A stretch of DNA of 64,000 nucleotides from an uncultured Christensenella sp. (GTDB taxonomy: Bacteria > Bacillota > Clostridia > Christensenellales > DTU072): NCBI GenBank assembly GCA_964418255.1, contig CAYQKV010000002.1:108421-172420 (forward strand), read 5' to 3'. A program made the position numbers and the translations under genes. Below, piece by piece: positions 4,193 to 57,544 of this stretch. Below the pieces are notes generated by a model, which was given only the letters and a program-made list of their open reading frames with translations, did no database searches and had not been told where the DNA came from. Every line of letters begins with the position of its first letter. Positions within the stretch are counted from its first letter, which is position 1.

Positions 4193-5332
4193 TTATTCGC
4201 CGTATTTGTAGTCGTAACCGATTTTGTCTGCGGTCTTGATAGCCGCGGCAACCATATCGACCGTCACGGGGAAGGGCATATTGTGAATGGATTCGTCGGG
4301 GATGCAGGTCTTTTCCGCGATAGCTTTGAGCATTTCGTCGTCGATGGAATCGGTGCCGATGTCCTTCAAGCATACGGGAAGTCCTACCGTCAGGCAGAAA
4401 GCGAGAACTTCGTAGAGCTCTTCTTCGGGAGCGTTTTCGAGGACGAGCTGGCAGATTGTTCCGAACGCAACCATTTCGCCGTGGAAGTATTTGGTGTGCG
4501 AGGGAAGCAACGTAAGTCCGTCGTGGATAGCGTGAGCAGCCGCAAGACCGCCGCTTTCGAAACCGAGACCGGAAAGAAGAATGTTGGTTTCGATGATTTT
4601 TTCAAGAGCGGGAGTAACGACTTTGTTTTCGCAAGCCGCAACCGCTTTCGCACCGTCGGAAAGAAGTGTCTGATAGCAAAGGGTTGCGAGAGCCATAGAC
4701 GCCATCGTGCCGTATCCGAGAAGAGTTCCCTTAGCGCGGTTAGCTCCGCAGGGAAGTCCCGCGTTTACGTTGCTGAAAGACCTTTCGTTCGCGCGAGCTT
4801 CGAAATAGGTGCTCAGAGCGTCGCCCATACCGCTGATAAGGAAACGGGCGGGAGCGTTGGCGATAACTTTGGTATCGATAAGAACTACGCTGGGGTTCTG
4901 ACGGAAATACGCGTAGTCGTCGAAGTGATGGTCGTCGGTATAGAGAACCGCGCTGTGCGAAGTGGGAGCGTCGGTAGCCGCAATCGTCGGGCAGATGATA
5001 AGGTTGCTGCCTTGCGCTACGCATTTAGCAGTGTCGATGGCTTTTCCGCCGCCGAGACCGATGGTGCAGGCGCATTTGTTTTCTTTCGCAAAATCCTGCA
5101 ATGCTTTTACTACGTTACGGGAACATTCGCCTTTGAAAATGTCTCCGCAGGGGTAAAATTCAACGCCGTATTTCGCAGCCGTTGCGTCAAGTTTGTCTTT
5201 AACGAGGTTGTATGCGAACGGGTCGGCTATAAGCAACGCCTTTTTCCCGAAAGTTTTCACAAAATAACCTAAGTTAAGTAATTCGTCCTCGCCTTGAACG
5301 TACTTAGACGGACAGATAAACGCTTTTCTCAT
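4193..5332 (-). CDS. gldA: Glycerol dehydrogenase (iron-containing alcohol dehydrogenase family)
   Basis: 379 aa. Typical GldA N-terminus (FICPSKYVQGEDEL), GLGGGKAIDTAK nucleotide-binding loop, and His ligands (AAHAIHDG, HGEMVAFG). RBS aaggaga. Confidence 0.9.
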   Translation of the reverse strand: MRKAFICPSKYVQGEDELLNLGYFVKTFGKKALLIADPFAYNLVKDKLDATAAKYGVEFYPCGDIFKGECSRNVVKALQDFAKENKCACTIGLGGGKAIDTAKCVAQGSNLIICPTIAATDAPTSHSAVLYTDDHHFDDYAYFRQNPSVVLIDTKVIANAPARFLISGMGDALSTYFEARANERSFSNVNAGLPCGANRAKGTLLGYGTMASMALATLCYQTLLSDGAKAVAACENKVVTPALEKIIETNILLSGLGFESGGLAAAHAIHDGLTLLPSHTKYFHGEMVAFGTICQLVLENAPEEELYEVLAFCLTVGLPVCLKDIGTDSIDDEMLKAIAEKTCIPDESIHNMPFPVTVDMVAAAIKTADKIGYDYKYGE

Positions 5333-6147: not shown

Positions 6148-6346
6148 AAATACTCAAAAAGTAAAAATCGCACTTTTTACTTTTTGCCCTTATGGGGTTC
6201 GAGCAAGGGGAAACCCCTTGCGAACTTACATAACAAGCGGAACGGTACGCTCCGCTTCCTTGTAAGTCCGACTTGCGTGGATAAAGATTTTATCGGCACA
6301 AAGATTAGCGACTTGCCGTAAAATCCCGCGCAACGTCTGGTCGGAA
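6148..6346 (+). repeat. Structured repeat element, subfamily 1, copy 1 (orientation A on + strand)
   Basis: Homologous to 17326-17531(-), 48275-48475(+) and 57230-57428(+). Hairpins: caaaaagtaaaaa/tttttactttttg, gcaagggg/ccccttgc, aagcggaacg/cgctccgctt. Long 3' helix: tccgac..ttgcgtgg..gattttatcggca / tgccgtaaaatc..ccgcgcaa..gtcgga. Confidence 0.85.
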
Positions 6347-16793: not shown

Positions 16794-17318
16794 ATGAAAC
16801 CGAGAAAGAAACTAAAAAAAGATAACGGGACGAAAACAGACGAAGCGATGCTGATAAAACAGCAGGCTGAAAGAATAGAAGAATTAAGAGAGGAAAACCG
16901 CGCGCTCGAACTGTCTCTGGAAAGTTACAGAAACAGGGAAAAGGAAATCGTCGCTACGCTCGAATTCGCTAAAAAGAAAGGCGAAGAGTACGTCGCTATG
17001 GTAAGGGTAAAATACGCCCTCGAATGCGACCGTCTCGCAAGGTTCAGAACGAAACTCAAAGCATATAGGACGAAAGAAGAATTGATAAAGGGTTATGACG
17101 ACGCTTACGGACAGCTCAAAGAATGGCAGAACGAACTCGAACAGGCTATCGCGAAAGACTTCGGCAACCCGATGAAAGACTACCTCGGCGAAAGAAAAAG
17201 ATTAAACGACGAACCCGCCCTTAATTACGGCGCGATTATCGGAGAGGGAACGACCGACCTCGAAAACGCAACGCAGATAAGCGAAGAGGAACTTAAAGAA
17301 TTACTTGAACAGATATAA
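16794..17318 (+). CDS. Coiled-coil protein, DivIVA-domain-like
   Basis: Charged heptad-rich sequence (EELREENRALELSLESYRNREKEIVATLEFAKKKGEEY). The ATG at 16794 is preferred over the track start at 16671, which overlaps the ACT gene promoter region. Confidence 0.5.
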   Translation: MKPRKKLKKDNGTKTDEAMLIKQQAERIEELREENRALELSLESYRNREKEIVATLEFAKKKGEEYVAMVRVKYALECDRLARFRTKLKAYRTKEELIKGYDDAYGQLKEWQNELEQAIAKDFGNPMKDYLGERKRLNDEPALNYGAIIGEGTTDLENATQISEEELKELLEQI

Positions 17319-17325
17319 ACGCAAG

Positions 17326-17531
17326 GCTTCCGACCAGTCGTTGCGCGGAGATTTTCCGTCAGTCGCTAACGCTTTGTGCCGATAAAATTTTGTATCCGCG
17401 CAAGTCGGACTTCCGCGGAAGCAAAATGACACATTTTGCTTAATAGTTTAGTTCGCAAGGGGTTTACGCCCCTTGCTCGAACCCCATAAGGGCAAAAAGC
17501 GAAAAGTGCGATTTTCACTTTTTGGGTATTT
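17326..17531 (-). repeat. Structured repeat element, subfamily 1, copy 2 (orientation A on - strand)
   Basis: Reverse complement aligns end to end with 6148-6346. Helices ttgcgcgga/tccgcgcaa, ggaagcaaaatg/cattttgctt, gcaagggg/ccccttgc and caaaaagtgaaaa/ttttcgctttttg. Confidence 0.85.
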
Positions 17532-17672
17532 TGACGTAAAACTTATCGGGTCACCCCGCCCGCCCACCCGATAGAGTGGGTGTTTTTTATCTGTTATCCT
17601 TATCCGCTTTATTTCACTTTATTTACAGAGATACTTAATTAGGGAGAAAACTATAATAAACAATACGAAAGA

Positions 17673-17825
17673 TTTTTGTAAGGGAAGAGCGCGAGAGGGG
17701 AGAAACTTTTTGCTAAAAAAGGTTTCCTCTCTCGCAATTTTAACATACCAACTTACGAAAAGTTTTTGTAAAGAGGGAGCACGAGGGAGAAGAAACTTTT
17801 TGTCAAAAAAGGTTTTCGCCCTCGT
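17673..17825. repeat. Two 'empty' inverted-repeat hairpin units (the same arms that flank subfamily-2 cores, but without a core)
   Basis: Unit 1 (17673-17735): gcgagaggggagaaac-tttttgctaaaaaag-gtttcctctctcgc. Unit 2 (17763-17825): acgagggagaagaaac-tttttgtcaaaaaag-gttttcgccctcgt. About 85-90 bp spacing, continuing into the full element at 17846. Confidence 0.7.
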
Positions 17826-17845
17826 AAACTCTCTAATAAAATTTT

Positions 17846-18115
17846 TGTTTTTGTAAGGGAAGAGCGCGAGAGGGGAGAAACTTATATATTCGACACGAAC
17901 GTGCGCGTACCGAGAGTGTCGCCTTTATGGGGGTAAGCAAGGGGAGTGAACCCCTTGCGAGCTTACATAACAAGCAAAATGTGTCATTTTGCTTCCTTGG
18001 TAGTCCGACTTATGCGGATTAAGAAATCGTCCGCGTGTCGAATTCATCTCGACCGCGAGCGATTTTCCGCATAACGTTTGGTCGGGTGTAGTCTAAAAAG
18101 TTTTCCTCTCTCGCA
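17846..18115 (+). repeat. Structured repeat element, subfamily 2, single core inside inverted-repeat arms
   Basis: Left arm gcgcgagaggggagaaactt (17864-17883). Core begins cgacacgaacg..gtgtcg. Right arm aaagttttcctctctcgc (18098-18115). Core is homologous to the 203-bp units at 56477-57150. Confidence 0.85.
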
Positions 18116-18120
18116 CGCTA

Positions 18121-19188
18121 CTATTGCACAAAAGAAAAAGCGAAATCGCCGTCGCTGTCGATGGTAAGAATGATGGTGCCGTTAAGGTCGGTGCGGTAGA
18201 CCGAGGCGTCTGCCGCTTCGAGACGGGCGAGGGCGTCGGGAGTGGGGTGACCGTATTTGTTATCCTGTTCGTCAACGCAGATAATCGCGTACTCGGCTTG
18301 CACGTAAGCGAGAAATTCGGTCGTGGACGAATGTTGGCTGCCGTGGTGAGCGACTTTGAGAAAATCGACGTCCATATCGTAACTTTCGCTGTACAGAATA
18401 AACCATTCCTCTTCTTCGCTCGGCGCGTCGCCCGTAAGAAGGAGTTTTCTCCCGCCGTAGGTAAGCAAGGTAATAATCGACATACCGTTTTTGATTTTGC
18501 TTTCGGTCTTTGTAAAGCCGTCGTTGCCGGGAGAAAAGAAAGTGAGAACGCAGTCGCCGACCGTTAAATCAAACGTAGAACTTTCGGGCGTATCGATAAT
18601 ATGTAACGTCGCGCCGTCCTCGGCTTTCGCCTTGTCCGTGAACTTTCGATAGGTAGCGGAACCGTCCTCATAATAATCGTTAAAATAAAAGTTTTTTATA
18701 ACGTAGTCGTCCACGACCTGACTCATCATATTGACGTGGTCGCTGTCCGGATGTGTGACGACAAGATAGTCGATAACGTCTCCCTCCACGACGTCGGATA
18801 AGTATGAATAATACCGCGTCTTCGTCGCGGACGAAGCGGAAAGTCCGCTGCCCGCGTCCACAAGCATATATTTGTTTTCGGGAAGTTCGATTACTATCCC
18901 GTCGCCCTGACCGACGAACACGAAATGAATTTTTATCGGCACGCCGTCTATTTCGCCGACGGAATCGCCCCGCACCGTAGCGGAAGTCCCGCCGCTTGCG
19001 CCGCCATTATTGCCGTTTCCGTCGTCTAAGTTGTCGTCCTGCGTTTCGCCGAGGATAGCGTCGATTACGCTATCGAGTTTTCCTGTTTTATATAAAACTA
19101 TCGTTAAGGCTACCAAAACGAGGATAAGGAGCACCGCAATTATGATTATTGCTGTCTGATTACTTTTTCGAGATTTTCTTTTTGCCAT
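18121..19188 (-). CDS. Membrane-anchored MBL-fold hydrolase, ComEC/Rec2 C-terminal-domain-like
   Basis: N-terminal TM anchor, HxHxDH-type motif (VVTHPDSDHVNMM), and VAHHGSQHS. Confidence 0.7.
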   Translation of the reverse strand: MAKRKSRKSNQTAIIIIAVLLILVLVALTIVLYKTGKLDSVIDAILGETQDDNLDDGNGNNGGASGGTSATVRGDSVGEIDGVPIKIHFVFVGQGDGIVIELPENKYMLVDAGSGLSASSATKTRYYSYLSDVVEGDVIDYLVVTHPDSDHVNMMSQVVDDYVIKNFYFNDYYEDGSATYRKFTDKAKAEDGATLHIIDTPESSTFDLTVGDCVLTFFSPGNDGFTKTESKIKNGMSIITLLTYGGRKLLLTGDAPSEEEEWFILYSESYDMDVDFLKVAHHGSQHSSTTEFLAYVQAEYAIICVDEQDNKYGHPTPDALARLEAADASVYRTDLNGTIILTIDSDGDFAFSFVQ

Positions 19189-19455: not shown

Positions 19456-19633
19456 CGTTTTGTATTTTTATTTATGCGCGCACGCAGAGCGCGTACGCAT
19501 AAAGAAAAGACGGAGTGCGCATATAGCGTTTTGCCGATTGTCCGGAAAGTCCGCTTCGTTTATGCGGCGGCGAAATTACTTACTTTTCCGAAAGACAAAC
19601 GCAATCTGTTCACACCGTGTAAAGGCGCGAGGT

Positions 19634-22600
19634 ATGATGATGAAAACTAAAAGATGTACGGGTCTGAAAATTGCCGTTACGGCTATCGCGGCGGCGCTGC
19701 TTACGATGTTGCTTTCGGCGTGTTTCGGGACGCATACCGTAATTACGTTTCAGACGAACGGCGGTTCTCCCTGCGAGTCGATTACCGTAGACGGAGAAAC
19801 CGAAAGCATTACGTTGCCCACGCCGACGAGAGACGGTTACGACTTCGACGGGTGGTACGCCAACCGCGCGTTGACCGAGTCCGTTCCGAACGTTCTCACG
19901 GGAGAGAGTATTCCCACCGCAAGCGTTACTTTTTACGCGAAATGGCTCGTTAAACAGATTACCATAACTTTTGTGGCGGGAGACGACGTCGTCGAAAAAC
20001 GCGTGCTCGACTACGACTCGTACGTTTATGCGGAAGATTTTCCGTCTCTTGCCGACTATCCCGATTATCGTTGGAACAACGCTACGTTCAGGGCGCAGTA
20101 CGACCGTACGATAACCGCGGTGAAAGTGACGGTCGAAGACCCGGAATACACCGTGTCTTACTATGTCCCCGGTGAAGACGGTTTTTCCTTATACGCTTCC
20201 CGAAAAGGGACGGAAGGCACGGCTATCGTATCTCCCGAAAATCCCGTTTCTCCCGACGGCGACTCCGCTAAATATTTCGCGGGATGGTACTACGACGAAA
20301 ATTACGTCAATCTCTGCCGCGAGCTTCCGAGCAGTATAGGGGGAGAAAACCTTTCTTTCTACGCTAAGTTCGAAGAGGCGGGAGACGATTCGAGATACTT
20401 ATTCTATGAAGAAACCGCCGACGGAACGGGCGTGACTATTATCGGTTTTACCGTGGTCGGAGGATACCAGCCTACGGTGTCCATTCCTTCCGAGATAGGC
20501 GGCAAACCCGTAGTCGCGTTGGGTACGGGCGGAGAGCCCGCGGCAAAAGGCGCGCTCGGCTCGACGTTTTTGAAACGCGTGGTGGTTCCCGCGTCGGTGC
20601 GGGAGATAAGAGACTGGGCTTTCGCGGGGTGTACCGCGCTCGAAGAGGTTATTTTTACGGGCGACGCGGTTACTTCGATAGGTAAAGGAGCGTTCGCGGG
20701 GTGCGTTTCTCTTGCGGCGTTTAACCTACCCGATAACGTGACGAGCGTGGGCGATTACGCGTTCGCGGGGATAGGAACGGGCGGAACGGAAGACGTCGAA
20801 ATCGACGGGCTTACGGGAAAATGGACGAAAACGGAAATGAAACTTGCGCGTTTCAACTCGGGTTCGGCGAGCAAACTTTCCGCGCTCGGCGCGTATGCGT
20901 TTTATAACTGCCCGCAACTTGTCGGCGTCAAACTCGGCGCGGTTATGAGAGAATTCAACTACCTTGCGTTTATGGGAAGCGGCATTGCCGAAGTGGAATT
21001 TTACGAAGGGGGCAACCTTACGGGCATAGACGGCGCGGTGTATTCGCGTTCGGGAGCGACCCTTTACTATTATCCGCTTAACGGTAAAGTTGAATATACG
21101 ATGCCGCAAAGCGTAACGGCTGTCGCGCCTTACGCGTTCTACGCAAACGGCAATATAAAAACAGTCACGGTTTCGCCGCGGCTTGTTTCGATAGGAGAAA
21201 AAGCCTTCGCCGAGTGCTCTGCGCTCGAAAGCGCGTATTTAAGAGATTCCGTCCTTTCTTCTGTGGGAGAAAGCGCGTTCGAAAACTGCGTGTCTCTCGG
21301 AAGAATAGTTTTCCCTGCGACGCTCGTAACTCTTTCTTCTTCCGCGTTCGCTTCCTGCTCTGCGCTCGAAAGCGTTACGTTCGAAGGAAGCGCGCTTTCC
21401 GCGATAGGGGACAGGGCGTTTGAAAATTGCGTTTCGCTCGGTTCGATTACCGTACCGACGGACGTGACGAGCATAGGAAATTATGCGTTCGGAAATTGTA
21501 CTTCTCTCGCGTATCTGCGGTTCGGGACGAGGAGTAAACTGACGTTCGTCGGCGATTACGCGTTTTACGAATGCAGAAGCATCGGCTCGGTGTTGTTGCC
21601 GTCGGGAATAACTTCGATAGGAAGGTACGCGTTCGCTTCGGAAAGCGGCAGAATGGAATTCGAATTCGACGGAGATACCGATTTAAGCAACCTCGAATAC
21701 ATAGGCGATTGCGCGTTTATGAACACGCGAATAGCTTCGGTTACCATATCGGGGAAAATCGCGTCGAACGACGCGCTCGGGAAATACGTTTTCAAAAACT
21801 GCACTATGCTTAGACAGGCGTTCTTCTCGCCCGCCGCGTATACCGCTGTGCCCGAAGGACTGTTTTACGGTTGTACTTCTCTTACGAGAATAAGATTTTC
21901 GGGAAATATCCGCTCGGTGGGAGCGTACGCGTTTTATAACTGCGCGGCTATGGAATGGGCGGAATTCGGTTCGGGCGTTACGGAAATTTACGAAAGCGCG
22001 TTCGAAAACTGCGTTTCCCTTACCAACCCGGGAGCGGACCAAAGAGTTCTGCCACGCAACCTTACCTATCTCGGGTCGAGGGCGTTTTATAACTGTTCTT
22101 CCCTCGAAACCGTCAATATACCCGCAAATCTTGCGAAAATAGAGAAAGAAACTTTCGCGCGGTGCTCTTCGCTTACCGATATAAACTACGACGACGGTGC
22201 GGTTCTCGCCACGATAGGGGAAAACGCGTTTGCGTACTGTTCGAGCCTGCAAAGGGCGGCTTTGCCCGTTTCCCTTGCGGAGAGGAACGAAGACAACGCG
22301 AGCGGATTTGTGGGAAATCCTTTCTACGGGTGCGCGAATTTGAGAGAATACGTCTTCGCGGGAACGCCAGAAGGAACGTTGTTCGCCGAGGACGGAGTTG
22401 TCTATCGCAAGCTGGAAAAGGCGAGCGTTGAGGGCGAATACGCCGCGGAAAGGGCGATTTACGCGTATCCTACCGCAAAATCCACGGCGACGTTCAATGT
22501 TTCGACAAACGTCGCGGTTATCGACGCGTACGCGTTTTACGGATGCGTAATAAGAGGGCTCGGGTTTGCGAGAAATACCGAAGTCGGCGGAACGGAAAGC

Positions 22601-25600
22601 GTGGTTTTGGTGTCGATAGGGGACTACGCGTTCGCCGACACGCAGATAACGACGGCGAATATTTCCTTCCGCGTGTACGAAATAGGAGAAGGCGCGTTCA
22701 GAAACAGCCAACTGAGCAGCGTGACCGTGGACGGAACTTATATTTACGACGGAATAAGCGATTATTCGATAATAAATACCGATACCGACAGAGCGAACAA
22801 TCTGATTTCCATAGGAGCGTACGCGTTTGCCGAGACTTCGATAGCGACGTTTACCGCGCCGTCGAGAACGGCTTTGCTCGGAGAGGGTGCGCTCAGTTCG
22901 GATTACAAACTTTCGTCGGTGACGCTTACGGGAGGGAATTTAACCGAACTTACGCTCGGCGCGCGGCTTTTCGAAAAGGACAACCTCATTACCGAAATCA
23001 CCCTGCCGTCCTCGGTAGTCGAAGTGGGAGCGTACGCGTTTTATCGCTGTTCCAACCTCGGTTCGGTGCGCTTTGTTTCGGGCGGTTCGTTCGGACTGAC
23101 CATCGGAGACTACGCGTTTTCCGAAGCGCATTATCTGTATGAAATAACTTTGCCGTCCACCGTGGTTTCCCTCGGAACGGGCGTGTTCGACGGCGATACC
23201 AGACTTAAATACGTATACTTCCCGGAGACTCTTACCGTTGCGACCGACCTTGCCGTACCCGACAGAGCTTTTGAAGGTATGCCCGCGCTTAACGAGCTGG
23301 AAATTCCCGAGTATATCTCGAAAATAGGGGAAAAAGCGTTCGCGTCATCCGCGCTTAGAAGCATAACCTTCCTCGGAACGGAAGATTCGGTCGGACTGGA
23401 AATAGCAAGCGAAGCGTTCGCAAAACTCGACGGACTTACCGAAATAACCCTTCCCGCGAATTTAACCGCAATAGGAGAAAGAGCGTTCGCGTATTCTGCG
23501 TTGAAAGAAGTAGTTTACGGAGAGGGCAAAACCTTTACGATAGGCGACGGAGCGTTTGAAGGAACCGCGCTTACCCAATTTACGGCGACGGAAAGAGTGT
23601 CGAAAATCGGGAAGAGAAGTTTTGCAAACGTCGCTACCCTTACCTCTTTTACATCCGCGGATACGGTGACGGAAATACCCGATATGGCGTTCTACGGAGA
23701 CGCGCGCCTTTCGAATTTATCCCTCGGAAACGCGGTGACGAGCCTTGGAAGAGAATGTTTTTACGGAACGGGAATTACCGAATTCCTTTCCGAATCGGTG
23801 ACGGAAATAGGCGTCTCCGCGTTCGGGAATTCGGCGGTTAAGAAAGTATCGTTTGTTTCTTCTTCGAAAATCACGGTGGAAGAAAGAGCGTTCGAAAACG
23901 CGAGAGCGCTTGCGGAAGCGAGCTTCGAAGCGGCGGGAGAAATAGTTATCGGCGAAAACGCGTTCGAAAACAACGCGGCGCTTATCGCGCTTACTGTAAA
24001 AGGCGCGACGGCGGTACTTGCGGACGGGTTCGCTTCGGGAGCGACCTCGCTCGGAGAAGGGTTCTCGTTCGAAGAAACCGACTCTGCGTACGCTAATTAC
24101 AAGTTCGACGAAGAGGAAAAAGTACTGTACTCGGCGGATGGAAAGAAATTCGTATATTATCCCGCGGGCAAGACGGGTTCGGTGTTTACCCTTGCAAGCG
24201 AAGTGGAAGAAATCGGTCCTTACGCGTTCTATGCGAACGCGGGGATTACCGCGCTTATTATAGAAGGGGAAAACGTCGTAAGGAGCGATACCAGTTTCGG
24301 ATATACGAGCGCGGACCTTACTTTCTACGTCGCTTCCGACCTGGTGGAACAGTATATAAACAGATGGCAGACGAGCGCGTTTGCGGCGCGGTCGACCGTG
24401 CTCGGCGGGTTCGTTCTCGCGTTGCAGAGTTCGGGAGATTACAGCGTAACCGAATACCTCGGAGCGGACGACTACGTGGAAATAACCGGCGAAATGACGG
24501 ACGAAGAGGGTAAAACTTACGTCGTTTCTTCCGTCGGAGAAAACGCGTTCAGAAACAATACCGTCATACGGACTCTCGTAATAGACGGAGGGATAAAGAC
24601 GATAGCGAGCGGAGCGTTCCGCAACTGTTACAAACTCGCCTCGGTTACGATAGGAGAAAACGTGACGAGCGTGAAGAGTTACGCGTTTTATAACTGCGCC
24701 GCGCTGGAAAGCGTGGAGTTTGCGGGAGAAAGCAGTCTGATAAGCATAGGAAATTACGCGTTTGCGCGGGACGGTGAGCTCAAAGAATTCTCCGTACCAG
24801 ACGGGGTGGAGAGCATAGGAATATTCGCGTTTTCGGGAGATTACAGTCTTAAAGAAATCACGATAGGAAACGGGCTTGCGGAAATAGGCAACAACGCGTT
24901 CGAAAACTGTTCGTCAATCGTATCCGTCGCTATGCCCGCGTCGCTGTCGAAAATGGGAAGTTACGTTTTCAGCGGTTGCGATAACCTCGTATACCTCGAT
25001 ATAGGCAATCCGTCGGTGTGCTCGATAGAAAGCAACACGTTTAACGGAACGCCCGAAAGTTTGTATTTCTTCGTTCCCGATTCTGCGGCGGCAAGACTTT
25101 ACAAAGCGGACGGGGTGTGGAGAACGCATATCAGCAAAATTCTGTCCGCGGAAGAGCGTTGCGCGGAAGAAGGGTTTGAAAACTACGTCCTTAGAAACGA
25201 CGGGACGGGGTATACGCTTATAGCGTATCTCGGCACGGAAACCGACGTGGAAATCGTATCCGATATTTCCGACGACGTGAAAATCGAAGAAATAGGCGAG
25301 TATGCGATAGGACAGTTTGCGAAAAACGTGACGGTTGATGACGGCGTAAAAGTAATAGGAGAACGCGCGTTCTATCAGGCGAAAAACCTCGCTACGCTCG
25401 TTCTTCCGTCAAGCTTGGAAGAAATCGGTTCTTACGCGTTTCAATATCTCGAAAAATTGACTTCGGTAACCGTAAACGACGGGTCCGTCCTCGCTTCGAT
25501 AGGACCTTACGCGTTTTACGGATGTACGGGACTTACCGAAATCGTGTTGCCCGCTTCTTTAAGAACCGTGGGGGACTACGCGTTTTCGTGCGCGGACGGA

Positions 25601-27775
25601 GAAAGTATGAACTTGAAAACGGCGCTTTTCTTACACGACGCCGTAGGCGGAACGGACGGGACGGGAGCGAGCGTATATATTTCGATAGGAAGAAAGGCGT
25701 TCGCAAACAACGCCGAGCTTAAAACGCTTACGTTCAACTGCCGCGTGTCGGCAATCGGAGACGGCGCGTTCGACGGGTGCGAAAGTCTCGACAGTCTGTA
25801 CCTTAATTACAATCCGACGAGAAACACTTCCGATATGGTGGCTTCGGTAAGCGGAAACGGAGTGTTCGGCGGGTGCGAAAAACTTTCGGTGTTCCTGCCC
25901 ACGACGGCGATAACGGGACAGTACAGGACGGTATGGACGTCGGACTACGACAAACATAAACTTACCGCGGTTACTTACCGCGACACTCTCGGCTTCGTGT
26001 ACGCGGTTACTTCCACGTCGAACAGACAGGTTACCGTTATTAACTATCTCGGCGATGATACCGAAGTTAACTTCCCGACGGAGACGCAAATCGGACAGGA
26101 AGTGTACAGAGTGGTGCGTATAGGCAGAGAGAAATACGGGACTGCGGAAGAGGTAAACGGACGGATTATAGGAAACAACGTTACGAAAGTAACGATACCC
26201 TCCACGGTCGTCACGATAGGAGAGGACGCGTTCAGGGACAGCGAAAATCTTAAAGAAGTCACGATGGGGACGAGCGTAAACACGATAGAAGGATATGCGT
26301 TTGCCGGGTGCAAAAAACTTACCGACATAACCATACCTCTTTCGGTGACGACGATAGAAGCGTACGCGTTTTACGACTGCGACAGTCTTAACACGGGACT
26401 GCGTTTTGCGGAGTCTGTCGCCCCGCCCGCCACCCCCACCCTTATTATCGGAGGATACGCGTTTGCCGAGTGCGACGAACTTGCTTCTTTCTACGTGCCC
26501 AACCACGTCAGAACGATAGGCGGCGTAAGAACGACGGGAAGCGTAAACGTCGGGCATACGTTCGAAAACTGCGTAAACCTTACTAAAATAACTTTCTCGT
26601 CCGACGCGCTCATTACGGCAATCGAAGGATATAACTTCGTGAATACGGCGATTGAAGAAATCGTCCTTCCCCGTTCGCTGGAAACGGTGGCGGATTACGC
26701 GTTTGCAAACTGCTCGAAACTTCTGAGAGTGGTAGTGGAAAGGGAAATCGGCGCGGGCGTTTCCACACCGACGACTGCGGGGAACAACGTGTTCGACGGC
26801 ATAGACAACCCTCAATTAAAAGTTTACGTTCCGTCGGCGTCTTACGACGTGTACGCGGCAAGCCGCGGTTGGAACGTAAAAACGGTAATAGAAAACAACG
26901 TTACGCCCGACGGACTGTTCGCTTATAAACTCGACGGAACGGGCGACGGCGCGTACATAACCCTTACCGACTATCGCGGAACGGAGGAAATCTGCGTCGT
27001 GCCGAGGTTGGTGACGTTGCAAAGCCGTGATTATTACGTTACCACGATAGGCAGATATTTTGCCGCTTCGTACGTGAAAAAAGTCGAGTTCGAAAACGTT
27101 TCGTCGGTTACGGCTTTGGCGGAGTACGCGTTCGCGTCGTGCTATATGCTCGAAGAAATACATCTGCCCGACGGAATAACGACGATAGGAGCGCACGCGT
27201 TCGAAGGGTGCGTAAAACTTACCGATATAACGCTTTCCGCTTCTCTGTCGGAAATCAAAGAATTTACGTTCTATAATTGCAATTCGCTTAAAGAAATCGT
27301 TCTGCCCGAGGAAATTCTCAGCATCGGACCGTCGGCGTTTTACCGCTGTTCCAACCTTTCGAGAGTGGTCGTTAAGTTCGGGAAAAACCTCAACGAAAGC
27401 AACGTGGGCGCGTCGATAGGAAACTCCGCGTTCGGTGACGCGGGCACGGGCGCGGGCGGACTGGCTATTATAGTCCCCGACGACAAATACGCGGTATTCC
27501 GCGCGGGCTGGATTGCGGACAGAGACCGTATTTATTCGGCAAGCAACGTCGTGGGCGACTACGTGGTCAGAATAAACGATATGGGAACCGCGCTTACCCT
27601 CGTGCAGTACGTCGGCAACGCCGAGACGCTTGACCTTACGGAAATTTCTATGATGGGACTGTACGTCGATACAATCGCGGAAAACGCCATAGCGAGCGAA
27701 CTTACTACGATAATCGTGGGTAAAAACGTAGTTTTCCCGTCGGATATTGCGGACAGGATACAGATAAAGGAATAA
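19634..27775 (+). CDS. Giant surface lipoprotein (2713 aa) with a Listeria-Bacteroides-type repeat and many BspA-type leucine-rich repeats
   Basis: Start moved to ATG 19634 (MMMKTKR...LLSAC lipobox). The N-terminal segment FQTNGGS....P.RDGYDFDGWY is followed by dozens of repeats of the form IGxYAFxxCxSLxSVxIPxSVTSIGxxAF. Confidence 0.9.
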   Translation: MMMKTKRCTGLKIAVTAIAAALLTMLLSACFGTHTVITFQTNGGSPCESITVDGETESITLPTPTRDGYDFDGWYANRALTESVPNVLTGESIPTASVTFYAKWLVKQITITFVAGDDVVEKRVLDYDSYVYAEDFPSLADYPDYRWNNATFRAQYDRTITAVKVTVEDPEYTVSYYVPGEDGFSLYASRKGTEGTAIVSPENPVSPDGDSAKYFAGWYYDENYVNLCRELPSSIGGENLSFYAKFEEAGDDSRYLFYEETADGTGVTIIGFTVVGGYQPTVSIPSEIGGKPVVALGTGGEPAAKGALGSTFLKRVVVPASVREIRDWAFAGCTALEEVIFTGDAVTSIGKGAFAGCVSLAAFNLPDNVTSVGDYAFAGIGTGGTEDVEIDGLTGKWTKTEMKLARFNSGSASKLSALGAYAFYNCPQLVGVKLGAVMREFNYLAFMGSGIAEVEFYEGGNLTGIDGAVYSRSGATLYYYPLNGKVEYTMPQSVTAVAPYAFYANGNIKTVTVSPRLVSIGEKAFAECSALESAYLRDSVLSSVGESAFENCVSLGRIVFPATLVTLSSSAFASCSALESVTFEGSALSAIGDRAFENCVSLGSITVPTDVTSIGNYAFGNCTSLAYLRFGTRSKLTFVGDYAFYECRSIGSVLLPSGITSIGRYAFASESGRMEFEFDGDTDLSNLEYIGDCAFMNTRIASVTISGKIASNDALGKYVFKNCTMLRQAFFSPAAYTAVPEGLFYGCTSLTRIRFSGNIRSVGAYAFYNCAAMEWAEFGSGVTEIYESAFENCVSLTNPGADQRVLPRNLTYLGSRAFYNCSSLETVNIPANLAKIEKETFARCSSLTDINYDDGAVLATIGENAFAYCSSLQRAALPVSLAERNEDNASGFVGNPFYGCANLREYVFAGTPEGTLFAEDGVVYRKLEKASVEGEYAAERAIYAYPTAKSTATFNVSTNVAVIDAYAFYGCVIRGLGFARNTEVGGTESVVLVSIGDYAFADTQITTANISFRVYEIGEGAFRNSQLSSVTVDGTYIYDGISDYSIINTDTDRANNLISIGAYAFAETSIATFTAPSRTALLGEGALSSDYKLSSVTLTGGNLTELTLGARLFEKDNLITEITLPSSVVEVGAYAFYRCSNLGSVRFVSGGSFGLTIGDYAFSEAHYLYEITLPSTVVSLGTGVFDGDTRLKYVYFPETLTVATDLAVPDRAFEGMPALNELEIPEYISKIGEKAFASSALRSITFLGTEDSVGLEIASEAFAKLDGLTEITLPANLTAIGERAFAYSALKEVVYGEGKTFTIGDGAFEGTALTQFTATERVSKIGKRSFANVATLTSFTSADTVTEIPDMAFYGDARLSNLSLGNAVTSLGRECFYGTGITEFLSESVTEIGVSAFGNSAVKKVSFVSSSKITVEERAFENARALAEASFEAAGEIVIGENAFENNAALIALTVKGATAVLADGFASGATSLGEGFSFEETDSAYANYKFDEEEKVLYSADGKKFVYYPAGKTGSVFTLASEVEEIGPYAFYANAGITALIIEGENVVRSDTSFGYTSADLTFYVASDLVEQYINRWQTSAFAARSTVLGGFVLALQSSGDYSVTEYLGADDYVEITGEMTDEEGKTYVVSSVGENAFRNNTVIRTLVIDGGIKTIASGAFRNCYKLASVTIGENVTSVKSYAFYNCAALESVEFAGESSLISIGNYAFARDGELKEFSVPDGVESIGIFAFSGDYSLKEITIGNGLAEIGNNAFENCSSIVSVAMPASLSKMGSYVFSGCDNLVYLDIGNPSVCSIESNTFNGTPESLYFFVPDSAAARLYKADGVWRTHISKILSAEERCAEEGFENYVLRNDGTGYTLIAYLGTETDVEIVSDISDDVKIEEIGEYAIGQFAKNVTVDDGVKVIGERAFYQAKNLATLVLPSSLEEIGSYAFQYLEKLTSVTVNDGSVLASIGPYAFYGCTGLTEIVLPASLRTVGDYAFSCADGESMNLKTALFLHDAVGGTDGTGASVYISIGRKAFANNAELKTLTFNCRVSAIGDGAFDGCESLDSLYLNYNPTRNTSDMVASVSGNGVFGGCEKLSVFLPTTAITGQYRTVWTSDYDKHKLTAVTYRDTLGFVYAVTSTSNRQVTVINYLGDDTEVNFPTETQIGQEVYRVVRIGREKYGTAEEVNGRIIGNNVTKVTIPSTVVTIGEDAFRDSENLKEVTMGTSVNTIEGYAFAGCKKLTDITIPLSVTTIEAYAFYDCDSLNTGLRFAESVAPPATPTLIIGGYAFAECDELASFYVPNHVRTIGGVRTTGSVNVGHTFENCVNLTKITFSSDALITAIEGYNFVNTAIEEIVLPRSLETVADYAFANCSKLLRVVVEREIGAGVSTPTTAGNNVFDGIDNPQLKVYVPSASYDVYAASRGWNVKTVIENNVTPDGLFAYKLDGTGDGAYITLTDYRGTEEICVVPRLVTLQSRDYYVTTIGRYFAASYVKKVEFENVSSVTALAEYAFASCYMLEEIHLPDGITTIGAHAFEGCVKLTDITLSASLSEIKEFTFYNCNSLKEIVLPEEILSIGPSAFYRCSNLSRVVVKFGKNLNESNVGASIGNSAFGDAGTGAGGLAIIVPDDKYAVFRAGWIADRDRIYSASNVVGDYVVRINDMGTALTLVQYVGNAETLDLTEISMMGLYVDTIAENAIASELTTIIVGKNVVFPSDIADRIQIKE

Positions 27776-48118: not shown

Positions 48119-48274
48119 ACAAAAGGAAGCGAAACATACCGTTCCGCTTTCGGTTATTTGTACTATAAAATATCGTATCAACCCACCCGCCCGCCCGAAT
48201 TGCTTTTCTTCTTTATCCGCTTCCGGGGTTTAATAAGGAGTCTCCCCTTATTTCGTGAAAGGGTGTAGGGAATT

Positions 48275-48475
48275 CATATTCAAAAAGCGAAAACTACGTT
48301 TTTCGTTTTTTGCCCTTATGGAAATAATTAAGGGGAGTGAACCCCTTGCGGACTTAAATGAAAAGGAAGTCGGTACGAATTCATTCATTATGAGTCCGAC
48401 TTGCGCGGATATAAGGTTTTATCGGCACAAAGCGTAGCGACTGGCGGAAAATCTCCGCGCAACGACTGGTCGGAT
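48275..48475 (+). repeat. Structured repeat element, subfamily 1, copy 4 (partly degenerate)
   Basis: H1 is caaaaagcgaaaa/ttttcgttttttg. H2 is aagggg/cccctt. H4 is ttgcgcgga/tccgcgcaa and tccgac/gtcgga. H3 and the inner part of H4 carry mismatches. Confidence 0.8.
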
Positions 48476-49066: not shown

Positions 49067-49135
49067 TATCAAACCTTGAAAAACCTCGGTTATCTTTACA
49101 AAAAAAGCAAAGTGCGGTATAATTACGTAGACAAA

Positions 49136-50725
49136 ATGAAGAAAAAGTTACTGTTTTTAATTCTTGTCGCGCTTGTTGCGGCGATATTTACGGGTTGCGA
49201 AAAGACGTTCCCGTCCGATTTGTATATCGAGGCGACGGACGTAGTAAACGCGCCCGCAGGGGAGTATTATCTTCCTTATTCCGTCAATAATTTTTCCTCG
49301 TACGAAATGAAATACGATTTGTTCGTTTCGGTGAAGGCATACGTTTTGCCCGACAACACCCCTGTTACAGTCAACAATAACCGCTCGATAACGGTGGAAA
49401 AAGAAAAGACGTATTCGGTCGTAGTGCGGCTTTACGGCGCGGTTGACGGAAAAAATCTGAGTCAGACCAAGTCGTTTACCGTCGAAGCGGAAAAAGCGGA
49501 CAGAGTTATCACGTTTATGCACGAAGACAATACGGTCGTCAAAAAATTTATCGTGCCTTACGGCGGCAGTCTCGCTTTCGACGAGGTGCCCGAACTTCCC
49601 GACAGATACGAACTTTCTGACGAGAGCCATTATACGGAAATCGTTTCAAAACGTTGGGTCGTATACGAAAAAGTAGGGGAAAACACGGAAACGCGCGAAC
49701 TTATCGAAGAGTATCTTACAAACGTAACGGAAAATATTCCCGTGTACAGCGAGTACGTTTATTCTACAAAGCCTCTCGAATGTACGGTAAAGTTCGATAC
49801 CGACGGCGGTTCGGAAATTCCCGACTACCACGGCGATACCGACACGGTTATGCCCAAATCCGCTTCTCCCGTTAAAGACGGATATACGTTCGTAGGGTGG
49901 TGTACCGACGAAGAAAGAACGGAGTTTTATAACTGGGCGCAGAGCGTAAAATTGAAAAAAGATATGGTTTTATACGCCAAATGGGTAAAAAACACGGAAA
50001 ATGCAACGCCGAATTCGAATTTCAATTTTTATCTTTCCGAGGACAACTACGGGAACGAGTTTTATCTGATAGAAGCTAAGGACAAAGAAAATCTCGGCGG
50101 AATTCTCGTTTTGCCGAACAATTATCTCGGCTTGCCCGTAAGAGGAATGACCGAGCGCGCGTTTCAAGGGACGTCGATTACTTCGGTAATAATCCCCAAC
50201 TGCTACGTGCTCGATAATCAGAGAGGGTTCGCCGAATGCAGAAATCTGAAAACCGCTACGATAGAAGCGGGAGGCGTCACCGACACGATTGCGTCGGAAT
50301 TTTTCTATCAATGCACCGCGCTCGAATACGTCGATTTGCCCGACGGAATTAACATAATACGCCCCGGCGCGTTTACGAACTGCCTCTCTTTAAGGGAAAT
50401 AACTTTGCCTTCCTCGCTATATTTCATCAACAGTCGCGCGTTCGTCGGGTGTAAGGCCTTACGGCGGGTGGATATTCCCGATACCGTGACGGTAATAGGA
50501 GAAGAGGCATTTTCGGGATGCGCCGAACTTGCCGAACTCATAATAGGGGAAAAGAGTGGGATAAAAGCAATCGAAACAAACGCGCTTAAAGATACGAAAA
50601 TAACCGAAATAACCTTGCCGTATAAATGGAGTCTTGAGGAAAATCTGCCGATAGACGATAAGAATATCACCGTAAAGTTCTACCCCGACAGACAGGAAGA
50701 GGAAGAAGAGGGAACGGAAGAATAA
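49136..50725 (+). CDS. Lipoprotein with a Listeria-Bacteroides-type repeat and BspA-type LRRs (small paralog of the giant protein)
   Basis: The ATG at 49136 gives MKKKLLFLILVALVAAIFTGC (lipobox). The segment FDTDGGSEIP....DGYTFVGW is followed by IxxxAFxxCxxLxxIxLP repeats. The C-terminal tail is acidic. Confidence 0.85.
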   Translation: MKKKLLFLILVALVAAIFTGCEKTFPSDLYIEATDVVNAPAGEYYLPYSVNNFSSYEMKYDLFVSVKAYVLPDNTPVTVNNNRSITVEKEKTYSVVVRLYGAVDGKNLSQTKSFTVEAEKADRVITFMHEDNTVVKKFIVPYGGSLAFDEVPELPDRYELSDESHYTEIVSKRWVVYEKVGENTETRELIEEYLTNVTENIPVYSEYVYSTKPLECTVKFDTDGGSEIPDYHGDTDTVMPKSASPVKDGYTFVGWCTDEERTEFYNWAQSVKLKKDMVLYAKWVKNTENATPNSNFNFYLSEDNYGNEFYLIEAKDKENLGGILVLPNNYLGLPVRGMTERAFQGTSITSVIIPNCYVLDNQRGFAECRNLKTATIEAGGVTDTIASEFFYQCTALEYVDLPDGINIIRPGAFTNCLSLREITLPSSLYFINSRAFVGCKALRRVDIPDTVTVIGEEAFSGCAELAELIIGEKSGIKAIETNALKDTKITEITLPYKWSLEENLPIDDKNITVKFYPDRQEEEEEGTEE

Positions 50726-55063: not shown

Positions 55064-55315
55064 TAGTGAATTAGTGCCCCTTTCTTTTTTTACCGTAAGT
55101 TCTTTACGGTTTTTTACATTATATCAGAAAGTCGTATCGTTGTAAAGACCGAACGCAATAAACGGTTCTAAATATATATGCGTGCGTTTTAGGCGGTTTT
55201 ATTAGAAATAACGACGCCGAGCGGAAACTTGTCCCGGTTTGAGTTGCGTTTTTTTTCAGTTCTGATATAATAGTTCTATTATAATAGTGTAGAGCGCAAA
55301 GCCGAACTAAGGAGA

Positions 55316-56467
55316 ATGAAATTGAGTAAAGTATTTGATTTGATTAAAAAAGAAGAAGAACGCCAGAGCCGAAACATAGAACTTATCGCGAGCGAAAATT
55401 TTTGCAGCGAAGACATTATGAAAGCGGTGGGCAGTTGCCTTACGAATAAATACAGCGAAGGGTATCCGGGTAAAAGATATTACGGCGGGTGCGAAGTCGT
55501 AGACGAGATAGAGACATATTGTATAGAGATGTGGCAAAAAGTGTTCAATACCGATTACCACGTCAACGTCCAGCCCCACAGCGGTTCGAGCGCGAACCTT
55601 GCTTCTTACCAGGCGATTCTTGTTCCCGGAGACAAGGTTCTCAGTATGGAACTTAACAACGGCAGTCATCTTACCCACGGTTCGGCGGTAAACGCGAGCG
55701 GAAAACTCTATAACTTTTCTTTTTACGGAGTGGACGAAAGAGGTTATATCGATTACGAAGACGCGAGAAAGAAAGCTCTCGAAATCCGTCCGAAACTCAT
55801 AGTGGCGGGCGCGAGCGCGTATTCGAGAATAATCGATTTCGCCAAATTTTCCGAGATAGCGAAAGAAGCCGGCGCGCTTCTTATGGTAGACATCGCGCAT
55901 ATAGCCGGACTTGTCGCTACGGGTTATCATCCTACGCCGTTCGGGTATGCCGATATAGTAACTACGACTACGCATAAGACGCTGAGAGGACCGAGAGGCG
56001 GTTTGATTTTCTGTAAGGAAGAACTTGCCAAAAAAATCGACTCGGCAATCTTCCCGGGAACGCAGGGCGGACCTTTGCAACACGTTATCGCAGGCAAAGC
56101 AATCGCCGCGGAAGAAGCGTTGACACCCGAGTACAAGGAGTATATAGGAAAGGTAGTCGAAAGCTGTCGCGTTATGGCGGAGGAGTTCGTAAAAATGGGC
56201 TATAAGGTCGTCACGGGCGGCACCGACAACCATCTTTTCCTTGTGGACTTGACGGACAAAGGAGTAAGCGGAAAACAGGTGCAGGAGGCTTGCGACGCAG
56301 TCGGTATAACCCTCAACAAAAATTGCGTGCCCAACGAAACCCGTTCTCCTATGCAGACGAGCGGCGTGAGAATAGGCACCGCGGCAATGACAACAAAAGG
56401 CTTTACCGCAAAAGATTTTGTCGAAACCGCTCATAAAATCGATAAAGTTATTAAAAATATTTTATAA
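55316..56467 (+). CDS. glyA: Serine hydroxymethyltransferase
   Basis: [32 protein letters not shown] and [14 protein letters not shown] (PLP lysine). At 383 aa it is shorter than the roughly 415 aa of well-known GlyA proteins. Confidence 0.95.
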
Positions 56468-56476
56468 ATTTAGATT

Positions 56477-57150
56477 GCGAGAGAGGAAAACTTTTTAGAC
56501 TACACCCGACCAAACGTTATGCGGAAAATCGCTCGCGGTCGGCATTTAGCCGACGCGCGGACGATTTTTTTAATCCGCATAAGTCGGACTACCAAGGAAG
56601 CAAAATGACACATTTTGCTTATTATGTAAGTTCGCAAGGGGTTTACTCCCCTTGCTTATCCCCATAAGGGCGACACTCTCGGTACACGCCCGTTCGTGTC
56701 GATTATCTCCGACCACACGTTATGCGGAAAATCGCTCGCGGTCGGCATTCAGCCGACGCGCGGACGATTTTTTTAATCCGCATAAGTCGGACTACCAAGG
56801 AAGCAAAATGACACATTTTGCTTATTATGTAAGTTCGCAAGGGGTTTACTCCCCTTGCTTATCCCCATAAGGGCGACACTCTCGGTACACGCCCGTTCGT
56901 GTCGATTATCTCCGACCACACGTTATGCGGAAAATCGCTCGCGGTCGGCATTTAGTCGACGCGCGGACGATTTTTTTTATCCGCATAAGTCGGACTTCCA
57001 AGGAAGCAAAATGACACATTTTGCTTGTTATTTAAGTTCGTAAGGGGTTCACTCCCCTTACTTATCCCCATAAGGGCGACACTCTCGGTACACGCCCGTT
57101 CGTGTCGAATATATAAGTTTCTTCTCCCTCGCGCTCCCTCTTTACAAAAA
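56477..57150 (-). repeat. Structured repeat element, subfamily 2: three tandem 203-bp cores inside a single pair of inverted-repeat arms
   Basis: Unit phase markers gacca[a/c]acgttatgcgg lie at 56508, 56711 and 56914 (period 203). Arms are gcgagagaggaaaacttt (56477-94) and aagtttcttctccctcgcgc (57115-34). Units are nearly identical. Confidence 0.9.
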
Positions 57151-57229
57151 CTTTCCTTATTTATGTATTTAATCTTTCCCTTACATTAAGTGTAAACTTA
57201 AATGGATGGAAAAGAAAAAGGAATAAAAT

Positions 57230-57428
57230 AAATTCAAAAAGTGGAAAGCACATTTTTCACTTTTTGCCCTTACAGGGGTCGAGCAGGGGAATATCCCCTG
57301 CGAACTGTGGATATAAGGAAGTCGGTACGACTTTCTTCCTTATAAGTCCGCCTTACACGGAAATAAATTTTATCCGCACAAAGGTTTTACCGATTGCGGT
57401 AAAATTCCGTGTAACGTTTGGTCGGAAG
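57230..57428 (+). repeat. Structured repeat element, subfamily 1, copy 8
   Basis: H1 is caaaaagtggaaa/ttttcactttttg. H2 is gcagggg/cccctgc. H3 is aaggaagtcg/cgactttcttcctt. H4 is ttacacgga/tccgtgtaa and aattttatccgca/tgcggtaaaatt. Confidence 0.85.
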
Positions 57429-57544
57429 CCTGCCGCCGTTTGGTTGGAAGCTTGCCTTGACTATTTTAGTTATAATGTAGTATACTTTATTTAAGGTAGA
57501 TGTTTACCTAAAATATATTTTGTCATATTAGGAGGATAGTTATT

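Follow-up and report, generated by a model that had tools for sequence, protein, structure and literature searches.

How does a structured RNA come to lie in the loop of one hairpin when neighbouring hairpins, built from nearly the same pair of arms, enclose nothing, and what would such an arrangement do? The question is raised by positions 17326-18115 of a 64,000-nucleotide stretch from an uncultured Christensenella sp. (contig CAYQKV010000002.1), the whole of which is termed here the window. This locus (locus 1) comprises a structured 'core' on the minus strand and three hairpin units, of which two are core-less and the third encloses a 211-bp core-bearing insert between its arms. The reading favoured here, to which a probability of about one half is attached, is that it is a mosaic of two independent modules--a hairpin repeat and a multicopy structured RNA--that were nested a single time and that would now yield outward-transcribed RNAs closed by a helix between the arms. 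The nested arrangement itself is real and modestly novel.

The hairpin unit and the core as separate modules

The three hairpin units lie on the plus strand, and each opens with TTTTTGTAA followed by a purine-rich tract; their starts (17673, 17763 and 17848) are 90 and 85 bp apart, the third unit carrying the core, much as an initial annotation of this DNA had put it (about 85-90 bp). In unit 1 (17673-17735) and unit 2 (17763-17825) the arms are joined by tttttgctaaaaaag and tttttgtcaaaaaag, respectively, and unit 1 has a stem of 13+6 bp with the loop GCUA. In unit 3 the prefix and left arm (17848-17883) are followed by the insert (17884-18094), which consists of a subfamily-2 core and short linkers (ATATATT... 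and ...GTGTAGTC) and which was delimited by comparison of units 1 and 3, by nhmmer (17884-18088, E 1e-58) and by folding; then comes the right arm (18095-18115), which, from sequence comparison and the predicted fold, forms an unbroken 18-bp helix with the left arm. The minus-strand element (17326-17531) is a subfamily-1 core, that is, a structured RNA of about 200 nt running from a hairpin termed H1 to a conserved 3' end (...AACGACTGGTCGG); it is recognised by blastn, by nhmmer (17530->17327, E 6e-60), by its fold (z -4.4 against shuffled controls) and by family covariation. The two cores point away from each other, their 5' H1 ends facing. This head-to-head layout, with its two arm-only units, had been described in the initial annotation, and every feature lies where it had been placed; the core, given there as roughly 230 bp, is shorter, the insert measuring 211 bp and the core about 204 nt.

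The units are plainly related. Units 1 and 3 are identical at 36 of 36 positions in their left arms and at 20 of 21 in their right arms. Unit 2 is a diverged copy, 78% identical to unit 1, that still folds: the change from gcgagag/ctctcgc to acgaggg/ccctcgt is compensatory, an early observation that both the sequences and the folds confirm. The two empty units fold at -70.6 kcal/mol versus -39.8 +/- 4.0 kcal/mol for shuffled sequences (z -7.7; 0/200), and the filled unit 3 at -117.7 kcal/mol (z -7.9), with its arms paired around the core.

Beyond this locus the hairpin unit is a sequence of about 63 nt, with an A/T-rich prefix (TTTTTGTAA, with variants TTTTTGTAAG, TTTTAGGGAA and TTTTCGGGAA) set off by a purine tract from a stem of 19-21 bp. 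A covariance model (R1), built from eight core-less units, contains 19 stem pairs, of which 96.7% are paired and five are changed on both sides, and it scores both empty units in the window at E ~1e-21 (90 bits, E 1e-21, for unit 1; 88 bits for unit 2). Among metagenome contigs a left-arm pattern gave 20 matches, of which four are true, on unrelated contigs (L066, L068, L080 and L083; sequences from other assemblies are denoted by L numbers), each of them single, intergenic, core-less and bearing the same prefix; the other 16 are chance matches, as are five viral matches to the prefix pattern, which come without a hairpin. In a related metagenome-assembled genome (MAG; L018) two core-less units adjoin a core. 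In six sister-species assemblies that encode an identical glyA protein (L102-L107), the interval between orf154 and the UDG gene contains related units in two arrays, which face outward from a centre rich in AT; assemblies differ in their count of long units (1+1, 2+2, 2+1, 1+2, 2+1), the spacer is 400-570 bp, and there is no core. This variation in unit number indicates that the hairpin-array layer is both real and dynamic. Outside these six assemblies, about eight empty units and the arms of two filled units occur in ~580 kb.

Might the arm-only units simply be intrinsic terminators of the ordinary kind, whose likeness to the arms is fortuitous? Their position is what such an explanation would predict, since the outermost hairpin lies 3-33 nt from the stop codon of the convergent gene at seven of eight sites. 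Moreover, in L102-L107 (~4685-4750), directly after orf154, there are mini-hairpins made of arm sequence alone (GYGAGAGGG-N4-CCCTCTCAC) and followed by a T-run, which resemble true terminators. Yet coincidence is excluded by the 36/36 identity of the arms, by the conserved prefix and by conservation across genomes at E ~1e-20; furthermore the long units lack a U-tract, neither strand shows a T-run, and the terminator scan does not pick them out. This explanation is accordingly given next to no weight. The likeness of the mini-hairpins to ordinary intrinsic terminators suggests instead that the long units evolved from terminators.

Three further observations concern the hairpin. In two of the sister-species arrays (L106 ~5125-5215; L107 ~5075-5160) there is a 'half unit', in which the right arm is preceded not by a left arm but by an unrelated 14-bp hairpin (gagtatgcaggggg...ccccctgcatactc). 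A conserved small open reading frame (ORF) in the hairpin was ruled out, the TTG of the loop being missing from L018, L066, L068 and L083. A role for TTTTTGTAA as an opposite-strand -35 box was likewise ruled out: it rested on one weak promoter call that was not reproducible at other units.

The core is far more abundant than the hairpin. With a pattern derived from its conserved 3' part, eight copies are found in the window versus 0 expected, four of subfamily 1 (starting at 6148, 17326, 48281 and 57235) and four of subfamily 2. In bacterial genomes represented by one genome per species the same pattern finds 60 loci, of which 56 lie in Christensenellales-type MAGs from gut and rumen, at up to ~20 loci per MAG; the remaining four, in Streptomyces and Acidimicrobiales, gave no match to the core profile and are treated as probably fortuitous. 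An nhmmer profile search of the fetched loci added about 72 matches to full or partial copies, again in Christensenellales MAGs; no core was found in phage records, plasmid records or viral contigs.

The consensus fold of 25 full-length cores (64% mean identity) has 45 predicted pairs, 29 of them with compensatory changes. In a hand-completed structure of 56 pairs, 89% of cells are paired versus 37-48% when the partners are slid, and cells with double changes number 204 versus 66 +/- 8 in shuffles, with 0 of 500 shuffles reaching the observed value. The predicted fold includes an invariant AACG bulge and a conserved CGAC loop. Because G-U pairs far exceed A-C pairs when the core is read from H1 to GGUCGG, this is taken as the transcribed strand. 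In Rfam 15 no core matches at the gathering score over the whole window, where the only such match is tRNA-Leu, nor at E <= 10 over 17250-18200; the latter search returned spurious miRNA-like and IS605-orfB-I matches on the hairpins (22 bits vs a gathering score of 94 bits), and no HEARO or IS605-orfB match on the cores. No RNA or repeat of this kind was found described for Christensenellales in the literature searches aimed at one. The core is thus a structured RNA of about 200 nt that forms five to six helices; its family is multicopy, is confined to Christensenellales and has a fold under selection.

Within this family the division into subfamilies 1 and 2, used in the initial annotation, is not a clean split: in other genomes (e.g., L018 and L043) the type of H1 and the type of inner hairpin assort independently, and since they recombine freely elsewhere the two subfamilies are not clean lineages. 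Similarity among copies stops within ~10 nt of the RNA, with no common promoter region. In more distant MAGs only the 3' ~120 nt of the core remain conserved, and in places the ~80-nt domain at the 3' end occurs by itself.

The family also varies in ways that are recorded here as observations in their own right. Some copies are truncated to the 3' domain (e.g., L059 7827-7904, and L037), a 3' bias, and ~11 of 85 copies are followed, a few bases downstream, by one or two repeats of their last 10-21 nt (..AACGTTTGGTCGG) (L009 438-490; L017 6394-6430 and 6641-6665; L024 7118-7145; L025, L027, L028 and L029; window 57425-57455). In the distant MAGs co323_70, RUG11213 and UBA6420 in place of the 5' half of the core there are runs in which a constant linker of 7-9 nt (AACTTCAC, AATTCGY or AATTGCC) alternates with variable 5-bp mini-hairpins (L056 3253-3400; L052 4163-4308; L033, L060 and L031), an organization that resembles multi-site protein-binding RNA. 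In Catabacter bin.66 and a Hadza MAG (L006, L016, L023, L043, L044 and L046) several cores have a conserved TATAAT box ~20 nt before H1 and several have a conserved 3' extension ending in a terminator-like hairpin (ccttcccc..ggggaagg+ttt); judging from these sequences, such copies look like complete small-RNA genes.

How, then, are the two modules related? About 76 of ~80 detected cores, partial copies counted, lie outside any arms. Across 462 kb (the window, the loci around cores and the hairpin-bearing contigs) the hairpin model finds no further units, and arms accompany cores at only two loci, both in the window, so the core does not normally include arms. Of the two layers proposed in the initial annotation, a hairpin array and a core that occupies hairpin loops, the first part holds, in that array and core are separable and each occurs alone. 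The second does not hold generally, for the nesting is confined to two loci, with identical junctions, in one species.

Nesting of the core and the proposed history of the locus

The insert in unit 3 takes the place of exactly the 5-nt loop apex TTTGC of unit 1. Relative to unit 1, unit 3 lacks TTTGC and one A, and has a G-to-T change in its right arm.

The second composite (locus 2) lies on the minus strand. Its right arm (56476-56496), of the type of units 1 and 3, lies 8 nt past the stop codon of glyA, and is adjoined by three tandem subfamily-2 cores of ~203 bp each (56497-57114), defined by sequence comparison and folding, and then by a prefix and left arm of unit-2 type (57115-57154; 39/40 identity to unit 2). 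Given that its left arm is of one type and its right arm of the other, the arm pair is chimeric. The three cores are 95-99% identical to one another and 91-92% identical to the locus-1 core, and in the minimum-free-energy fold the arms pair around all three (z -11.7). Divergent from this composite is a subfamily-1 core (57235-57429, plus strand), which reproduces the head-to-head layout of locus 1. Both filled loci share the left junction ...GAAACTT|ATATATTCGACACG and the right junction ...GGTCGGGTGTAGTC|TAAAAAG, the cores of the two loci being 8-9% different. Two filled loci with identical junctions point to a single nesting event, and core-in-loop nesting was seen only here, at two loci of the source species.

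The direction of that event can be read from the loops. The loop of unit 1 (TTTTTGCTAAAAAAG) matches those of genomes that have no core, so that the empty units, with the canonical loops of core-free genomes, appear to represent the ancestral state and not the footprints of excision. The converse explanation--that the empty units are remnants left by excision or deletion of the core from filled units, as the initial annotation allowed--draws on the 36/36 identity of the left arms of units 1 and 3, which implies that one was recently derived from the other. It is very improbable, inasmuch as the canonical loop of unit 1 recurs in core-free genomes of other taxa, it is the filled unit that is without five loop nucleotides and one A and that bears the G-to-T change, and the sister-species arrays contain hairpins without any core.

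Orthologous loci bear on the same history. The only other assembly that spans locus 1 belongs to the same species (99% identity of the protein encoded by the neighbouring MBL-fold gene) and has an identical architecture, with 16 differences in 950 bp (7 substitutions and a 9-bp deletion); with this one spanning assembly for comparison, no strain-level polymorphism between filled and empty states was found. In three sister species the orthologous sites are without the composite; one species (L093; 71% identical MBL protein, conserved synteny) has a 100-bp spacer with a plain terminator and neither module, and another with 94% identical glyA (L100 and L101) has 49 bp, again with neither module, versus the 1.08-kb second composite in the window. 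Conversely, a Hadza MAG has 2-3 cores versus a 61-bp spacer in the window. Several cores are kept at orthologous positions between related species, with compensatory changes. Sites with and without cores across species imply that cores are gained and lost over family-level time and are kept, with structure-preserving changes, over shorter time. At the junctions between core and arm no target duplication or footprint is visible; the sister-species intergenic regions are too diverged for the insertion boundaries to be aligned with them.

Short-read (Logan) contigs carrying the exact flanking genes (L061-L065, L097 and L099) all end 35-40 bp past the gene, inside an arm or core. Because contigs stop within the repeat, it is the core and arm repeats that fragment assemblies of the source species.

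These data also allow the model of the initial annotation to be weighed, according to which the core is a mobile element, itself non-autonomous, with the apical loops of hairpin repeats as its insertion sites. Loop-targeting has precedents in the insertion sequence (IS) elements that target REP hairpins and in the group IIC introns that target terminator stems. The core is multicopy, is missing from orthologous sites in sister species and sits exactly at a loop apex; its copies lose similarity within ~10 nt of the RNA, without a common promoter region; and the 3'-biased truncations and the terminal duplications in ~11/85 copies are of a kind that mobility could leave. Set against this, nesting occurs at only two loci among ~80 copies, with identical junctions that reduce to one event; there are no terminal inverted repeats, target duplications or footprints; among ORFs close to cores, in the ~460 kb around core and hairpin matches, neither a transposase nor a reverse transcriptase was recognised; and several copies persist at orthologous positions with compensatory evolution. 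On balance this model is unlikely, at perhaps one chance in several. The window itself is ordinary bacterial chromosome, encoding ribosomal protein L9, HU, glyA, Mfd, DinB, CorA, tRNA-Leu and a 2771-aa protein of BspA type with leucine-rich repeats (LRRs), and no mobile-element genes were found among the window genes scanned.

A related possibility is that the entire arm-core(n)-arm unit is a composite miniature element like the BOX repeat of pneumococcus, moved and amplified as DNA and having no function as RNA. It shares with boxA-boxB(n)-boxC the complementary outer modules, the inner module in 0, 1 or 3 tandem copies and the location downstream of genes; moreover, there are two genomic copies with identical junctions, and assemblies break at the repeat. 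This is a less probable account than insertion by a mobile core. Against it, the inner module belongs to an independent RNA family of 200 nt whose structure is under selection, even the differences that separate locus-1 from locus-2 cores including compensatory ones; the locus-2 arm pair is chimeric; and only two composite copies were seen.

Proposed outward transcription and the sequences around the cores

The favoured reading, a mosaic of two modules nested once, accounts for these observations by the following putative history. Short hairpin arrays of variable copy number would face away from an AT-rich centre and toward neighbouring convergent genes, at their 3' ends. In the lineage of the source species one core would have been placed, once, in the apical loop of a hairpin unit, replacing five loop nucleotides; the nested unit would then have been copied to a second locus and amplified there to three tandem cores within one arm pair. 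Arms would have been exchanged among units by recombination, and the copy numbers of both layers would change by unequal recombination. Units and cores may be transcribed outward from the central region, the arms forming an 18-bp closing helix that would isolate the fold of one or several cores and that might serve as a double-stranded processing, 3'-end protection or stabilising element, like the RNase III stems that flank rRNA. That RNase III or stabilising role is pure inference by analogy. Outward-transcribed non-coding RNAs, with the arms as a closing or processing helix, are the best guess that the predicted folds permit.

The proposed direction of transcription is based on the recurring layout and on the stability of the hairpin's sense strand. 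The layout is common to the two window loci and L018: on one side of a short AT-rich centre a core of subfamily-1 type is directed outward, and on the other side hairpin units, some with subfamily-2 cores and some without, are directed the opposite way. Among 22 distinct units the sense strand of the hairpin is more stable than the antisense in 13 and less stable in two.

Several points weigh against this reading. A single conserved G-U pair is responsible for most of the hairpin's strand bias. The closeness of the hairpins to convergent stop codons is likewise compatible with an opposite-strand role, in which they would be a 3'-end element of mRNA, and a U-tract is missing from the long units. 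On the plus strand upstream of units 1-3 the promoter scan called nothing of sigma-70 type. The proposed order of events rests on parsimony, with the nesting seen in one species, and no transposase or reverse transcriptase was recognised among the flanking ORFs that were screened.

A broader and distinctly more tentative proposal is that the core represents an undescribed, ornate, multicopy RNA class of Christensenellales, in which a constant 3' domain of ~80 nt (GUCCGAC...AACGNNUGGUCGG) is joined to interchangeable 5' modules and which spread as an RNA-sized cassette, and that cores, hairpin arrays, G-quadruplex motif and AT-rich centre together form a new type of bidirectional non-coding locus. 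The 3'-biased fragments and terminal duplications are what make spread by way of an RNA intermediate possible.

The G-quadruplex-type motif just mentioned (GGGTGGGCGGGCGGG) lies at 17555-17569 on the minus strand, 24-38 nt upstream of the subfamily-1 core and on the same strand. With one mismatch allowed it has three matches in the window versus 0.12 expected; the two perfect ones, at 17555-17569 and 48182-48196, are both beside subfamily-1 cores and both G-rich on the minus strand, their orientation relative to the core being different. The motif occurs also in L005, L014, L051 and L080; AAGCGGATAA is found 15-25 nt before it on the same strand, and GGGTGGGCGGGCGGGG is a candidate G-quadruplex sequence. 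On the plus strand of the same central region are a terminator-like hairpin followed by a T-run (17561-17590), called by consensus scan only, and the motif TTATCCTTATCCGCTTT (17594-17610), which contains 8-mers common to the array centres of L102, L103 and L105, the sequences held in common with the sister-species centre being TTATCCTTATC and TATCCGCTTT. The sequence TCCGCTTT is also present upstream of the cores at 6148 and 48281.

Those two are stand-alone subfamily-1 cores on the plus strand (6148-6346 and 48281-48474, the second between the HU and L9 genes), identified by sequence comparison and nhmmer, and neither has arms. Locus 1 is bounded by two genes that converge upon it. On the subfamily-1 side is the ORF for a 174-aa hypothetical protein (16794-17318, plus strand; taken from the ORF list, with the exact protein present on other assemblies, whose contigs break ~39 bp past the gene), whose stop codon is 11 nt from the 3' end of the core; on the other side is the gene for an MBL-fold hydrolase (18121-19188, minus strand; Pfam PF00753, with orthologues), whose stop codon is 5 nt from the right arm of unit 3. 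At locus 2 the neighbour is glyA (serine hydroxymethyltransferase; 55316-56467, plus strand; PF00464, E 1e-162); a 375-aa minus-strand ORF opposite it (55307-56434) is spurious, the plus-strand ORF that overlaps it being glyA.

Around ~60 core loci no recurrent protein neighbour was found, the largest ORF clusters being paralogous ABC transporters and BspA-type LRR surface proteins. Very large members of the latter lie near several cores (window 19460-27775, 2771 aa, and 49076-50725; L008, L036, L042 and L055), which probably reflects no more than the abundance of such genes in these genomes. A further repeat, ggataagggggaacattatgaggaaaggggtttattaagggggcttggagcgatgcccccttaa, which holds a 6-codon ORF and a terminator-like hairpin, adjoins cores in either orientation and is found upstream of them in L003, L005, L008, L011, L012, L035, L055 and L058-L060.

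Comparison with known systems

The Christensenellales are gut bacteria that are heritable and associated with health, and molecular work on them has been scant; in them an RNA family that is abundant, strongly selected and absent from Rfam would be a concrete target for RNA biology. The nested arrangement provides, in addition, a natural experiment, in that one RNA can be compared with a closing helix and without it, and singly or as three copies. There is a practical side as well, since the core and arm repeats break short-read assemblies of these genomes.

Among RNAs, the precursors of rRNA offer one parallel: there a long helix formed by 5' and 3' sequences encloses structured RNAs and is a substrate of RNase III. 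The composite loci share with these processing stems a predicted long helix around one or several structured RNAs, but differ in that the same helix exists empty; transcription and cleavage of the composites are putative. Multicopy or clustered families of bacterial small RNAs, some of them tandem and with conserved structure, are exemplified by LhrC1-5 and the Qrr RNAs. Unlike these, the core reaches eight copies in 64 kb and 10-20 or more per MAG, is larger and more ornate, and has modular 5' domains and 3'-terminal partial duplications.

Among mobile systems, the hallmarks of miniature inverted-repeat transposable elements were not found at the cores, which have no terminal inverted repeats (the 5' end being the H1 hairpin and the 3' end ...TGGTCGG) and no junction duplication. 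For an omega-RNA of TnpB or IscB, or a bridge RNA of IS110, no recurrent partner gene was found among the ~60 core loci.

The hairpin unit by itself recalls the REP, REPIN and BIME repeats, described as short extragenic palindromes that often occur in small clusters near gene 3' ends, have conserved flanking bases and evolve by duplication (PMC3116915, PMC3733652), a REP being a palindrome of 20-40 bp with a GTAG or CGTC tag at one end (PMC3733652). Like these and the SPRITE repeats, the unit is a short extragenic palindrome found in small clusters near gene 3' ends. Unlike REP and REPIN, it has no GTAG or CGTC tag, has a longer stem of 19-21 bp within a 63-nt unit, and can hold a structured RNA in its loop; a mere handful of units occur in the ~580 kb covered, no RAYT gene was seen and no transposase was found among the window genes scanned. 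A further difference is that the long units are without a U-tract.

The closest analogue is the pneumococcal BOX element, in which boxA and boxC pair and the self-folding boxB may be missing or repeated in tandem, its copy number varying between strains (Croucher et al. 2011, PMC3049150). As in BOX, the outer modules pair (an 18-bp helix being predicted at both filled loci), the inner module is self-folding, and its tandem number varies--0, 0 and 1 at locus 1 and 3 at locus 2; further features in common with BOX are an intergenic location, enrichment downstream of genes, strain-variable copy number and a predicted stable RNA stem-loop (PMC3049150). The inner module, however, is a multi-helix RNA of ~200 nt, whereas BOX modules are 45-59 nt; it is an independent family, with ~76 of 80 copies outside arms, and the outer hairpin likewise occurs alone, in arrays; and no resemblance to the terminal inverted repeats of an IS element is known here. 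Because the host belongs to the Christensenellales and not to Streptococcus, this is an analogy rather than membership, the likeness being one of architecture and not of directly compared sequence. As a second, unrelated instance of a BOX-type modular design, the composite suggests that paired outer modules around an expandable, self-folding inner module are a recurrent arrangement in bacterial non-coding DNA.

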